Below, in pieces: positions 52,244-54,612 of a DNA stretch of 64,000 bases; the stretch's first letter is position 1, and the number at the start of each line of letters is the position of its first letter. This DNA is from a virus. The translations under genes and the position numbers were made by a program. The stretch lies in the UHGV virus genome UHGV-0042229; one strand, written 5' to 3'. The notes under the pieces are model-generated. The model saw nothing but the letters and a program-made list of their open reading frames with translations, searched no databases and was not told where the DNA came from.

Positions 52244-53242
52244 TTATCCGTTACCGCGCGACGGTTTCTGCGTGACAAACGTCTCAAGCATCTTTTCCGC
52301 AATTGCCGACCAGGTGTGACACTGGACCTTTTCAGCATTTTTCACGCGATCAACGCGAGCAATAACCTCATCCCAATCAATCCGCGACTTGATAACCATA
52401 TGGTTCACCAAAGCCAGGCGATCTGGCGGAAGGCAATCGGGAGGCGTTAATACCAACGCCCCGCACATTGCCGCCTCAAGTACAGTTAATCCAAGGCTTT
52501 CGGGATGCGTAACGATAAACACGTCACTCTTACGCAATTCAGCTGCAAATTCGGTTGCTGGCACCGGCGTCCGTCTGTATGGAGTTACCGAAATATTCCC
52601 CGGATCAATGGTAACCAATCCGTCATCAGTCAACGTTCTGGCCTCATACGGAACGGTCAGACGCTGAAGGTTCATAAGGATACTTAAGGAGTGATCAAAA
52701 CCACTAACATCAAATGCAGCGTGGTCTACAAAAATACGCAGAACATCGTCTGTTTTGGTTTCCAGATGGAACAGATCCTGATTCGCTGCCCATCCAACAT
52801 GTTTGTTAAAACGATTATGACGCTCTAACCTGCCTGGATTATCCAGGTACCGCCAGGTATCATCGCGGACAGTAAAAGTAATATCGACTGGTGCCGAATC
52901 CAGCATAGAACCGTCGTATACCTGGGCTACCCATCCAGTGAATCGACGACGCAGTTGCACGCCTATTTCCCTGGGCACCGTAGTAAAATACCGCAATCCT
53001 GGCGCTAAAATGGCTTTCGCAGAACACGAGGTCGCAGCGGTCAACACAGCTTCAACATAATCCTCCGGGCTTTCGACGCCGGGGGAATATGGACGATGGT
53101 ATTGCAATGTTACCCCTGCCTCACTAAAGGCGCAGGCCAGGTTGTAAGCCCACATTTCCGTATATGTTTTCACATCACTGATAGCTTCAAATTTTCGCCC
53201 AATGATCAGGATGTTCATCGGCTTTTCCTCATTCCATTGCAT
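52244..53242 (-). CDS. GT1/GT4-family glycosyltransferase-like protein
   Basis: C-terminal ESLGLTVLEAAMCGALVLTP resembles the GT4 signature; co-transcribed downstream of ban. Confidence 0.55.
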   Translation of the reverse strand: MQWNEEKPMNILIIGRKFEAISDVKTYTEMWAYNLACAFSEAGVTLQYHRPYSPGVESPEDYVEAVLTAATSCSAKAILAPGLRYFTTVPREIGVQLRRRFTGWVAQVYDGSMLDSAPVDITFTVRDDTWRYLDNPGRLERHNRFNKHVGWAANQDLFHLETKTDDVLRIFVDHAAFDVSGFDHSLSILMNLQRLTVPYEARTLTDDGLVTIDPGNISVTPYRRTPVPATEFAAELRKSDVFIVTHPESLGLTVLEAAMCGALVLTPPDCLPPDRLALVNHMVIKSRIDWDEVIARVDRVKNAEKVQCHTWSAIAEKMLETFVTQKPSRGNG

Positions 53243-54612
53243 TAATAATCCTCTTGCCAGTCAGCACCAGCATAGTTATCAAACCGTGAGTATTGGCCGT
53301 TAAAAGCCAATCTCACCGTGCCAATTGGGCCATTTCGTTGCTTTCCGATAATTACCTCGGCAATGCCCTTCATTTCGCTATCCGGGTGATAAACTTCGTC
53401 GCGATACAGAAACATGATCAGGTCTGCGTCCTGCTCAATTGCTCCTGATTCACGTAAATCTGAATTTACCGGTCGTTTGTCCGCACGCTGTTCAAGCGAT
53501 CGATTAAGTTGTGACAATGCCACCACCGGTACTTGTAATTCCTTCGCCAACGCCTTCAGTGAGCGAGAAATCTCGGCAATTTCCAGCGTTCGGTTATCTT
53601 GCAGCTCGGGGACGCGCATAAGTTGCAGGTAGTCGATCATAATCATGCTCAAACCACCATTTTCTTTATAAACACGACGAGCGCGGGAACGAAGCTCTGT
53701 AGGTGTCAGGGCGCTTGAGTCATCAATAAAAATATTCTGCTTGTCCAACAGAATACCCATTGCGCCAGAAACCCGCGCCCAATCATCGTCGTTAAGTTGC
53801 CCCGTTCTAATACGAGTCTGATCAACGCGTGCAAGAGAAGCCAGTGAGCGCATCATCAGCTGGTGGCTCGGCATCTCAAGGCTAAAAACCAATACGGGCT
53901 TATCGTTACGGACTGCGGCATTTTCGACGAGATTCATCGCAAACGTGGTCTTCCCCATCGATGGGCGGGCGGCGACAATAATGAGATCGGACGGCTGAAG
54001 TCCTGCCGTCTTCTTATTGAGGTCGGTAAATCCGGTATCAAGCCCCGTTACACCATCATGCGGTCGCTGAAACAACTCTTCTATGCGAGATACCGTTGCA
54101 TCGAGAATGCTGGCGATATCTTTTGGACCACTACCGCTCTTTTGTCGTTTTTCAGCTATTTCAAAAACGCGGCGCTCGGCCATATCCAGCAATTCATTGC
54201 TGCCCCTGCCATCCTGCGCATATCCAGCTTCGGCTATTTCATTTGCGACGGAAATCATTTCACGAACAACCGCGCGTTCACGAACGATATCCGCATAAGC
54301 ACAAATATTTGCCGCGCTGGGCGTGTTCTTTGACATCTCCGCAAGGTACGCAAAACCACCGGCGCGTTCTAATTTACCGTTCTGTTCAAGTGCTTCAGCA
54401 AGTGTTATCAAATCAATCGGTTTGCCATGACTTAATAACCTCTCCATCTCACTGAAAATTTCACGATGAGCACTGGTATAAAAATCATCAGCAACTATAC
54501 GATCTGCAACTTCATCCCAGCGGCAGTTATCAAGCATTAAGCCACCAAGTACAGCTTGTTCTGCACTAAGGGAATTTGGCATGGATTCAAGAGGGGATGC
54601 AGACATTAGCAC
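53242..54612 (-). CDS. ban: Ban, DnaB-family replicative helicase
   Basis: 456 aa; Walker A ARPSMGKTTFAMNL and DnaB C-terminal motifs. Confidence 0.9.
   Translation of the reverse strand: MLMSASPLESMPNSLSAEQAVLGGLMLDNCRWDEVADRIVADDFYTSAHREIFSEMERLLSHGKPIDLITLAEALEQNGKLERAGGFAYLAEMSKNTPSAANICAYADIVRERAVVREMISVANEIAEAGYAQDGRGSNELLDMAERRVFEIAEKRQKSGSGPKDIASILDATVSRIEELFQRPHDGVTGLDTGFTDLNKKTAGLQPSDLIIVAARPSMGKTTFAMNLVENAAVRNDKPVLVFSLEMPSHQLMMRSLASLARVDQTRIRTGQLNDDDWARVSGAMGILLDKQNIFIDDSSALTPTELRSRARRVYKENGGLSMIMIDYLQLMRVPELQDNRTLEIAEISRSLKALAKELQVPVVALSQLNRSLEQRADKRPVNSDLRESGAIEQDADLIMFLYRDEVYHPDSEMKGIAEVIIGKQRNGPIGTVRLAFNGQYSRFDNYAGADWQEDY

Follow-up and report, generated by a model that had tools for sequence, protein, structure and literature searches.

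The 64,000-nucleotide stretch of virus DNA analysed here (UHGV virus genome UHGV-0042229, hereafter the window) carries a gene for a replicative helicase directly followed by one for a putative glycosyltransferase, which raises the question of what such an enzyme does behind a replication gene and which acceptor it modifies. The original prediction, made from the letters alone, held that the two genes are co-transcribed and translationally coupled in a C1-controlled operon with tRNA genes, and that the glycosyltransferase could act on DNA, on cell-surface polysaccharide in lysogens or on a protein. The pair is ban and dbn of phage P1, and this region of the window is 97.6–99.3% identical to P1 and RCS47. 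The glycosyltransferase idea is not new, as the P1, P7 and RCS47 records already name a possible or putative glycosyltransferase, and the initial observation finds again an existing annotation (P1 dbn, 'possible glycosyltransferase'). What is added here is that Dbn is to be viewed together with PmgO, PmgP and PmgQ, rather than with Ban or with DNA. If this is true, the classical model phage P1 would possess a previously unrecognised phage-directed glycosylation pathway. We found no functional study in the literature on dbn, on pmgO, pmgP or pmgQ, on DUF115 in prophages or on the LPS of P1 lysogens.

The ban–dbn locus and its operon

The features discussed are listed in Table 1. Ban contains both the DnaB N-terminal domain (PF00772, 2.7e-35) and the RecA-type DnaB_C domain (PF03796, 6.1e-108) over the full length of the Pfam models, which confirms it as a DnaB-type helicase; its region in the window is 97–99% identical to that of P1 and RCS47. 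The P1 annotation places the ban start at 54606, giving 454 aa, versus the GTG at 54612 in the open reading frame call. Compared with P1 Dbn (AAQ14048.1), P7 Glt and RCS47 Dbn, the window protein is the product of the same gene (97–99.7% amino acid identity, nearest to the RCS47 allele), located at the same place after ban with the same TAATG junction and with no material difference.

Table 1. Positions of the genes and signals discussed in the text
Feature	Position	Strand	Description
dbn (P7 name glt)	52244..53242	-	332 aa, predicted GT-B-fold GT4-like glycosyltransferase; 324 aa if Met9 start
ban ORF	53242..54612	-	DnaB-type replicative helicase; 456 aa from GTG
Oban (Op72ab)	57207..57234	.	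bivalent C1 operator; overlaps ban-operon promoter, located at 3' end of dmt
tRNA, CAT anticodon	54892..54967	-	upstream of ban; ARAGORN; P1 annotation trnI (tRNA-Ile2)
tRNA-Thr and tRNA-Asn	56399..56552 for the pair (56477..56552 and 56399..56474)	-	ban operon leader; ARAGORN and P1 annotation
Hairpin after dbn	52197..52223	-	intrinsic-terminator-like; 11-bp stem and U-run
pmgO	45647..46309	-	cassette partner A; MptE-like; PHROGs label sialyltransferase-like
pmgP	45123..45749	-	cassette partner B; second MptE-like protein
ppp	44449..45141	-	lambda-type Ser/Thr phosphatase; Pfam Metallophos 9e-16 and P1 annotation
pmgQ	43751..44452	-	cassette partner C; GT-A-like glycosyltransferase candidate with DxD-type 'LDLDT' motif

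The proposed operon context was recovered: operator, tRNA genes and terminator could all be located. Oban consists of one perfect and one two-mismatch match to ATTGCTCTAATAAATTT in inverted orientation, at the position of the operator annotated in P1. The operon also contains tciA/B on the same strand (tciA is TerB-like), and the hairpin behind dbn, which separates dbn from the convergent gene 5, folds with a centroid energy of -17.6 kcal/mol (z = -2.9). The whole layout on one strand (operator, tRNAs, tciA/B, ban, dbn, terminator) is identical to the P1 annotation. This arrangement is compatible with co-transcription of ban and dbn from the C1-controlled ban promoter: the two genes are separated neither by a gap nor by a terminator, and the predicted terminator directly follows dbn. 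At 20 min in a delta-hfq host, over-induction is seen for ban as well as for dbn.

The claimed overlap of the two genes also exists. Base 53242 is common to the ban stop TAA (53244..53242) and to the ATG of the 332-aa dbn reading frame, the junction reading GAT TAT TAATG. Two IMG/VR scans for related loci were performed, and among the loci listed (best 80) all were P1-like (L007–L086); the TAATG junction, in two cases as TGATG, is kept in 73 of these 80, whose alignments reach it. Met9 offers a further ATG (53218) with a GAGGA Shine-Dalgarno sequence of its own, and the majority of distant Dbn homologues begin at the equivalent position. Moreover, in seven P1-like contigs an inserted 101-aa open reading frame separates ban from dbn, and the homology picks up again precisely with the Met9 ATG. 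The shared base is real but, as the homologues and these contigs point to Met9, perhaps not part of the start in use. Translational coupling hinges on initiation at Met1, and Met9 is at least equally plausible; the true dbn start may well be Met9, which weakens the argument for coupling.

Fold, family and selection of Dbn

In the structural model, Dbn has two Rossmann-like domains and a cleft between them, as expected for a GT-B enzyme, and the predicted fold is of the GT4-like type. The original prediction, for which the absence of such a fold would have been fatal, thus survives its own check. Foldseek matches include GtfC and Gtf3, two protein glycosyltransferases of 330 aa. The GT4-type motif noticed at the outset, ESLGLTVLEAAMCGALVLTP, corresponds to residues 248–267 and contains an E-x7-E motif in the C-terminal domain (E248-SLGLTVL-E256), which aligns with E281 and E289 of WaaG. 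We assembled a Dbn family of 77 members sharing 21–59% identity with the window protein. E256 is invariant in all of them, as are D173, H174, H246 and G261, while E248 and D183 are each present in at least 90%.

Profile-based classification gave a mixed answer: the motif and the GT-B fold are there, but Pfam Glycos_transf_1 (PF00534) scores 25.0 bits, under its gathering cut-off of 26.4, and its match is confined to an 87-residue C-terminal stretch (aa 229–315). This model reaches E <= 1e-3 in 12 of the 77 family members, the best E-value being the sub-threshold match of the window Dbn itself. The PDB entry matched best by sequence is 8xsg (E = 1.7e-4), a glucosyltransferase from Actinobacillus. 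A profile search of the PDB with Dbn aligned the E-x7-E region only, and the same segment alone was aligned when the family was compared by hhalign with WaaG or WaaB singly; phmmer against the PDB gave matches at chance level only. NCBIfam yielded nothing significant and PADLOC no defence-system match. RefSeq names the protein 'glycosyltransferase family 4 protein', and PHROGs places it in a family of unknown function.

Compared with the retaining GT-B enzymes of CAZy family GT4 (PimA, PimB', BshA, MshA, WaaG, WaaB and sucrose-phosphate synthase), Dbn is shorter (324–332 aa) and shares only 9–15% identity. In the loop after the first strand of the C-terminal domain, the 77 members have the consensus LRILIDH......D, with an invariant Asp-His and no conserved Lys or Arg. 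In a residue alignment of low confidence, this Asp-His stands where GT4 enzymes have Gly-Arg, and the next loop has no conserved Lys; a global hhalign comparison of the family with a six-sequence GT4 profile reached 42% probability, too weak to assign phosphate-binding residues. Donor binding by Dbn may thus be unusual, because the canonical Arg and Lys of GT4 enzymes would be replaced by the invariant Asp-His.

The apparent lack of conserved canonical phosphate-binding residues could also be taken to mean that Dbn has lost catalysis and survives as a GT-B scaffold or as the decaying remnant of the cassette, and this would agree with the P7 record, where dbn is interrupted by a premature stop after codon 30, and with the dispensability of the gene in the laboratory. 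However, dbn is under purifying selection. Among 78 full-length P1-like alleles (53 unique sequences), only one has a premature stop, and the median dN/dS is 0.12, versus 0.05 for ban. Together with the residues that stay invariant across such divergent members, this makes loss of function a very improbable account, and Dbn is probably active, as a soluble glycosyltransferase of GT-B fold that belongs to a small and divergent family of GT4-like proteins.

A four-gene cassette and its probable split in P1

The implied functional tie between Dbn and Ban did not hold: in the seven contexts examined from outside P1, no DnaB helicase lies beside Dbn, and the Dbn orthologues are instead flanked by PmgP-like and PmgQ-like genes. 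In the window, dbn is about 6 kb away from the row pmgO-pmgP-ppp-pmgQ. PmgO matches phrog_4603 'alpha-2,3-sialyltransferase' (5e-74) and, under the cut-off, Pfam MptE-like (5.6e-5); it is 27–38% identical to cassette genes adjoining Dbn orthologues in three contigs (L005, L173 and L006). PmgP, also MptE-like under the cut-off (3e-4), shares 46–56% identity with the genes directly upstream of Dbn in these same contigs. PmgQ matches phrog_1962 'glycosyltransferase' (2.5e-128) and, weakly, a GT-A galactosyltransferase in the PDB (E = 0.086), and is 33–47% identical to the genes directly downstream of Dbn orthologues. Dbn itself is 47–56% identical to its cassette orthologues.

The four genes appear to be conserved as a single cassette among phages of Gram-negative bacteria, lambdoid and jumbo ones as well as those of roughly 115 kb. 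The order is O-P-(c)-Dbn-Q in the lambdoid contigs L005 and L095, O-P-Dbn-Q in the coliphages IME392 and EP_H11 (111–116 kb) and P-Dbn-Q-O in the high-GC contig L006. All four window families are orthologous to those of IME392, EP_H11 and the lambdoid metagenomic cassettes (27–56% identity), where neighbouring genes overlap and a further GT-A-like gene is sometimes present. Unlike these contiguous cassettes, P1 and the window have a row in which ppp fills the slot of Dbn between pmgP and pmgQ, and dbn has joined the ban operon.

A tblastn search of 50,697 phage records supports this association. All 22 Dbn-positive records were also positive for PmgP and PmgQ, which themselves matched in only 27 and 31 records, respectively. 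All hosts named in the matching records are Gram-negative. Two contigs with plasmid-type contexts (L004 and L096) have Dbn with no O, P or Q gene within 6 kb. Conversely, Dbn is missing from phiNP and JK004, in which P and Q are present; Dbn is therefore an optional component. A scan of GTDB genomes for dbn returned three loci, and the metagenomic relatives comprise 376 clusters.

The ban linkage is specific to the P1 lineage, and, taken as gene-neighbourhood evidence, these data suggest that dbn belongs with pmgO, pmgP and pmgQ; gene neighbourhood and co-occurrence also suggest that the four proteins may share a single pathway. The position of dbn behind the helicase would then be an accident of the P1 lineage, with pmgO-pmgP-ppp-pmgQ remaining as a block in pmgL, a late operon under C1 control. 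A late promoter is annotated for this operon in P1, as are C1 operators, for which corresponding sites were located in the window.

Dbn-like genes of bacteria also adjoin MptE-like genes, in polysaccharide-type clusters: the one of Colwellia lies beside Wza/Poly_export and that of Brucella beside a GT4 gene and glmS. MptE-like neighbours thus recur in phages and bacteria, as in the WaaZ- or Maf-type systems that combine MptE-like (DUF115) and GT4 proteins (LPS core, capsule, flagellin). In precomputed Pfam annotation, WaaZ_KDO_III-like matches of weak or faint level are present in some of the neighbours, and the MptE-like matches are under the curated cut-off, except for one Colwellia protein (45.7 bits versus 34.6).

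Candidate acceptors of the module

Of the acceptors first suggested, DNA was not borne out. To our knowledge, common restriction enzymes cut P1 DNA and methylation is its only modification, and we know of no hydroxymethyl-pyrimidine pathway in P1, from its annotation or otherwise. The annotation of the P1 regions compared lists neither a hydroxymethylase nor a gene of thymidylate-synthase type. Dbn has no sequence relationship to the T4 alpha- and beta-glucosyltransferases or to other phage DNA glycosyltransferases, and its genomic partners are sialyl/Kdo-transferase-like and GT-A-like, not genes of nucleotide metabolism. IME392 and EP_H11 had seemed to offer a lead towards hypermodified DNA, which was dropped: YerA41, SP-15 and RP13, whose oligosaccharide-modified thymidine is demonstrated or annotated, gave no tblastn match to Dbn, PmgP or PmgQ. 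The cassette is present in ordinary lambdoid phages and in P1. The closest bacterial relatives lie in polysaccharide clusters, as described above. In addition, the main text of the P1 knockout study reports unchanged antirestriction in the 24 knockouts that plaqued normally; by elimination, delta-dbn is one of these (PMC9024508). DNA glycosylation by Dbn is unlikely, and that Dbn, with or without PmgO, PmgP and PmgQ, serves an anti-restriction hypermodification of phage DNA has hardly any probability in our estimate.

[quoted passage not shown] CRISPRi knock-down of the same four genes gave an EOP near 1 in each case (PMC10695390). The four genes are dispensable for plaque formation, and because deletions and knock-downs plate normally, no phenotype anchors a glycosylation model.

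Proteins of the virion (tail, fibre, capsid) or of the host are another conceivable target, by analogy with Maf-type flagellin glycosylation or the glycosylation of mycobacteriophage virions. The MptE-like domain (PF01973) includes Maf enzymes that glycosylate proteins, and the structural matches to GtfC and Gtf3 and the best PDB sequence match, 8xsg, point the same way. Furthermore, pmgO-Q lie in a late operon beside baseplate and tail genes, and the cassettes of L005 and L095 directly upstream of terminase and head genes. Nevertheless, the deletions cause no plating defect and the bacterial relatives are found in clusters of capsule or polysaccharide type. In the paper on the P1 virion proteome, the main text names none of Dbn, PmgO, PmgP and PmgQ and is silent on glycosylation, although glycopeptides were perhaps not sought there. 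On balance we regard a protein target as unlikely, if less so than the other alternatives.

The reading that we prefer, to which we give an even chance, is that of a lytic-cycle module building a glycan on an envelope glycoconjugate, with Dbn as an active GT-B enzyme and fourth member of the cassette. As dbn would be the last gene transcribed in the C1-repressed ban operon, it would be made on prophage induction or infection and not in the stable lysogen. The four cytoplasmic enzymes would draw on nucleotide sugars of the host, with Dbn and PmgQ using an NDP-hexose, PmgO and PmgP a CMP-ulosonic acid (CMP-Kdo, for example). The cassette is without priming transferase, flippase or polymerase, and a pre-existing acceptor would be extended on the cytoplasmic side of the inner membrane. 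The likeliest acceptor, judging from the genomic context, may be a Gram-negative envelope glycoconjugate, for example the LPS inner core. The LPS core is also the receptor of P1, and its modification would give infected cells an altered surface. A more specific form of this proposal, in which P1 carries a complete but split four-enzyme module that builds a Kdo/hexose glycan on the LPS core or virion proteins during lytic growth, and Dbn represents a distinct GT-B subfamily binding its donor via Asp-His, is more tentative and falls somewhat below an even chance. What the cassette makes bears on receptor masking, superinfection exclusion and virion glycosylation in phages of Gram-negative bacteria, and since P1 is genetically tractable, with the single deletions in hand, the product of a widespread phage glycosylation cassette could be within reach.

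Finally, Dbn might act alone, as a lysogenic-conversion enzyme expressed from the prophage and altering the surface polysaccharide; lysogenic conversion was among the options named in the original prediction. The P1 annotation predicts two sigma-70 promoters for dbn within ban (P1dbn and P2dbn), one of which was recovered by a consensus scan (53879..53852), and the PHROGs category of PmgQ, not of Dbn, is 'moron, auxiliary metabolic gene and host takeover'. These internal promoters are predictions only, however, and are at chance level, the scan finding one site against 6.0 expected in shuffled sequence. Such a stand-alone role is improbable, as Dbn is found with PmgO, PmgP and PmgQ homologues in every phage lineage with enough sequence, and both the dbn and pmgO-Q loci lie behind C1 operators.

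The ban-dbn gene pair and its junction

The 3-kb region matches Escherichia phage RCS47 (99.3% identity) and phages P1 and P7 (97.3-97.6%) over its full length, and the corresponding records already annotate both ORFs. The P1 record describes ban as 'replicative DNA helicase' and dbn as 'function unknown, possible glycosyltransferase', whereas the second gene is glt, 'putative glycosyltransferase', in P7 and 'putative glycosyltransferase, Dbn' in RCS47; its RefSeq name is 'glycosyltransferase family 4 protein'. Thus, ban-dbn is a known gene pair, and the glycosyltransferase role of its second product, which carries ESLGLTVLEAAMCGALVLTP at aa 248-267, is an existing, already annotated prediction.

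The original prediction held that the two genes are co-transcribed and translationally coupled through a shared position. The overlap is real: the junction reads GAT TAT TAATG, base 53242 being both the last base of the ban TAA stop and the A of the dbn ATG. Of 80 P1-like viral contigs aligned across the junction (L007-L086), 73 retain it, two of them as TGATG. Co-transcription also holds and is well supported by the layout, with a C1 operator and tRNA genes as in P1 and a hairpin with a U-run directly after dbn (see table). Operator-like sites number 15 in the window, against 0.3 expected, and tciA of the ban operon is TerB-like. In a P1vir transcriptome, a delta-hfq host showed over-induction of ban as well as dbn at 20 min, which weakly supports a single transcript.

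Coupling through the shared base is uncertain. dbn has another ATG, codon 9 (53218), whose ribosome-binding site, GAGGAAAAGCCG, is as good as the AGAGGATTATTA of the first, and most homologues from other phages start at the Met9 position. Seven P1-like contigs (L080-L086) have an extra ORF of 101 aa and low GC (5699..6004 in L080) between ban and dbn; homology picks up again exactly at the Met9 ATG, which the stop of the inserted ORF overlaps as ATGA. The TTG start of this ORF overlaps the ban stop, and plasmid hits H94-H100, listed with this subset of P1-like elements, begin at dbn residue 9. We also observed, ∼170 nt downstream of the promoter and bivalent C1 operator Oban of the ban operon, a terminator-like hairpin (GCCCATCTTCGGGTGGGC) with a T-run behind it, which, if active, would attenuate read-through into the tRNA-ban-dbn operon.

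Features of the window relevant to ban, dbn and the pmg genes
Feature	Coordinates	Strand	Remarks
C1 operator, perfect, with inverted partner	57207..57234		Matches P1 operon context
dmt	57225..60266	-	1013 aa from GTG
Terminator-like hairpin and T-run	57025..57047	-	
tRNA-Asn and tRNA-Thr	56399..56552		Match P1 context
CAT-anticodon tRNA (P1 trnI)	54892..54967		Matches P1 context
ban	53242..54612	-	Confirmed in ORF list and by reading; DnaB N- and C-terminal domains, both full-length
dbn	52244..53242	-	332-aa ORF; ORF listing and direct reading
11-bp hairpin and U-run	52197..52223		Directly after dbn
Operator sites matching pmgL-pmgQ annotation	47357..47373; 43684..43749		
pmgO	45647..46309	-	27-38% identity to cassette genes; PHROGs 'alpha-2,3-sialyltransferase'
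pmgP	45123..45749	-	46-56% identity to cassette genes
pmgQ	43751..44452	-	33-47% identity to cassette genes; PHROGs 'glycosyltransferase'

The Dbn family of probable glycosyltransferases

The sequence evidence for Dbn as a glycosyltransferase is marginal. Pfam Glycos_transf_1 scores 25.0 bits, under its 26.4-bit cut-off, and spans only aa 229-315; NCBIfam and PDB sequence searches returned nothing useful, and PHROGs places Dbn in a family of unknown function. A profile search run exhaustively over 1.84 billion representative proteins yielded just 376 relatives (E <= 1e-3). Across 77 aligned members, which share 21-59% identity with the Dbn of the window, D173, H174, H246, E256 and G261 never vary, and at least 90% of the sequences keep E248 and D183, among other positions; PF00534 matches only 12 of the 77 even at E <= 1e-3. 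The E-x7-E glutamates of WaaG (E281 and E289) line up with E248 and E256. After the first C-domain strand, canonical GT4 enzymes carry Gly-Arg and a Lys; the Dbn family departs from this and, in a low-confidence residue-level alignment, shows Asp-His without a conserved basic residue. The predicted GT-B fold stands, and Dbn is very probably a glycosyltransferase.

A 509-aa protein of locus L092 (2999..4528), assigned to Glyco_transf_92 in precomputed Pfam, directly follows a full-length Dbn homologue and has a Dbn-like segment (25-27% identity over 121-136 aa to the orthologues of L005, L006 and L173; 39% over 79 aa to that of the window). This arrangement suggests that duplication in tandem, or fusion, occurred within the family.

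A premature stop occurs in only one of 78 full-length P1-like dbn alleles (53 unique), and the median pairwise dN/dS is 0.12 for dbn versus 0.05 for ban. On these allele comparisons, dbn is kept intact by selection, which contradicts the notion of a dead scaffold and makes it highly improbable. The single stop-bearing allele is the P7 record (AF503408; 2651..2743 and 1745..2608 in L002), where glt stops after codon 30 and the annotated product, begun at an internal TTG, is consequently shortened to 287 aa; either the gene is a laboratory-strain pseudogene, or the record has a sequencing error.

Dbn neighbourhoods and the phage cassette

None of the non-P1 homologues examined has a helicase beside Dbn, so the supposed link of dbn to ban and DNA appears incidental. 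In two lambdoid metagenomic contigs (L005 and L095), a high-GC contig (L006) and coliphages IME392 and EP_H11 (111-116 kb), the Dbn orthologue, 47-56% identical to that of the window, lies within a tight row of overlapping genes: two encoding MptE-like proteins, sometimes one for a small GT-A-like protein (c), then Dbn, then another GT-A-like protein. A search of all phage records with these partners matched P1 itself: PmgP is 47% identical to the upstream MptE-like neighbour of Dbn, and PmgQ 33% identical to its downstream neighbour. The order is O-P-(c)-Dbn-Q in L005, O-P-Dbn-Q in IME392 and P-Dbn-Q-O in L006. In P1, it is O-P-Ppp-Q; the Ser/Thr phosphatase gene ppp holds the slot of Dbn, and dbn lies ∼6 kb off, on the far side of genes 26, 25, 7, 24, 6 and 5 (tail and baseplate, opposite strand). 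PmgO and PmgP (MptE/sialyltransferase-like) and PmgQ (GT-A-like), annotated in P1 as 'putative morphogenetic function', are glycosyltransferase-like orthologues of the neighbours of Dbn elsewhere.

Hits to PmgP and PmgQ occur in only 27 and 31, respectively, of 50,697 records, and every one of the 22 phage records with a Dbn hit has both. These 22 represent three independent lineages, to which the metagenomic contigs contribute two further ones. Since phiNP and JK004 have PmgP and PmgQ without Dbn, the core seems to be O/P/Q, with Dbn as an optional addition. Our main new result, drawn from gene neighbourhood and co-occurrence, is that dbn and pmgO/P/Q probably belong together as a dispersed copy of a conserved glycosylation cassette of phages. 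In IME392 (L173) and EP_H11 (L174), the full contiguous cassette (∼4196..7589) lies near DNA ligase and pol X genes.

Bacteria, too, have Dbn-like genes in polysaccharide-type clusters, adjacent to one MptE-like and one further GT-B-like gene, for example in Brucella pseudogrignonensis, where a GT4 gene and glmS lie alongside, in a Colwellia MAG whose cluster includes Wza/Poly_export, and in one further MAG. The trio common to B. pseudogrignonensis chromosome 3 (L088, 1913..6804) and the Colwellia MAG (L093, 1953..6702), a ∼320-aa GT-B-like, an MptE-like and a Dbn-like protein, adjoins glmS in the former and Wza/Poly_export in the latter, and appears to be an undescribed glycan-synthesis module.

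Proposed function and regulation of the module

We propose that Dbn is an active cytoplasmic GT-B transferase partnered with PmgO, PmgP and PmgQ, and a shared pathway is probable. PmgO and PmgP, being MptE-like, would probably transfer a CMP-activated ulosonic acid, for example Kdo, which alone among such donors is universal in these hosts; PmgQ is GT-A-like with a DxD-type motif. Lacking a priming phosphoglycosyl transferase, a flippase and a polymerase, the module would have to decorate an existing acceptor. Among acceptors, we tentatively rank an envelope glycoconjugate highest, and the LPS inner core first among these, because all named hosts are Gram-negative, the bacterial relatives lie in capsule/LPS-type clusters and the LPS core is assembled at the cytoplasmic face. 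The LPS core is also the P1 receptor, and its remodelling during lytic growth could limit superinfection or progeny loss on debris.

In the P1 annotation, the pmgL-pmgQ operon has a late promoter and C1 operators, with matching sites in the window. With C1 operators at both loci, both halves of the module would be silent in the lysogen and on in lytic growth. A stand-alone lysogenic-conversion role for Dbn relies on predicted internal promoters whose scan support is not above chance, and seems quite improbable. The late operon and structural-gene neighbourhood, together with Maf- and GtfC-type analogies, would fit glycosylation of proteins or the virion, which we consider unlikely though less so; Dbn, PmgO, PmgP and PmgQ are not mentioned in the main text of the virion-proteome paper (PMC9024508).

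Among the 29 P1 single-gene knockouts of Gonzales et al., which include in-frame deletions of dbn, pmgO, pmgP and pmgQ (Table S1), only those of pmgA, B, C, G and R had a plaquing defect, and antirestriction was unchanged in the other 24 (PMC9024508). CRISPRi knock-down of the same four genes gave an EOP near 1 (PMC10695390). The unchanged antirestriction speaks against glycosylation of DNA by Dbn, as do the occurrence of the cassette in ordinary temperate phages and the lack of Dbn, PmgP and PmgQ homologues in YerA41, RP13 and SP-15; although IME392 and EP_H11 are listed as candidates for thymidine hypermodified with oligosaccharides (PMC12686479), we regard this activity as very improbable.

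Apart from the cassette, dmt, whose C5-cytosine methylase domain precedes a D12 N6-adenine methylase domain, carries a Hint and LAGLIDADG insertion (∼aa 77-415) in the former. The region is fully covered in P1 isolate OP279344, to 95% in RCS47 and to only 65-70% in classical P1 and P7, and the insertion looks like an intein or homing-endonuclease polymorphism.
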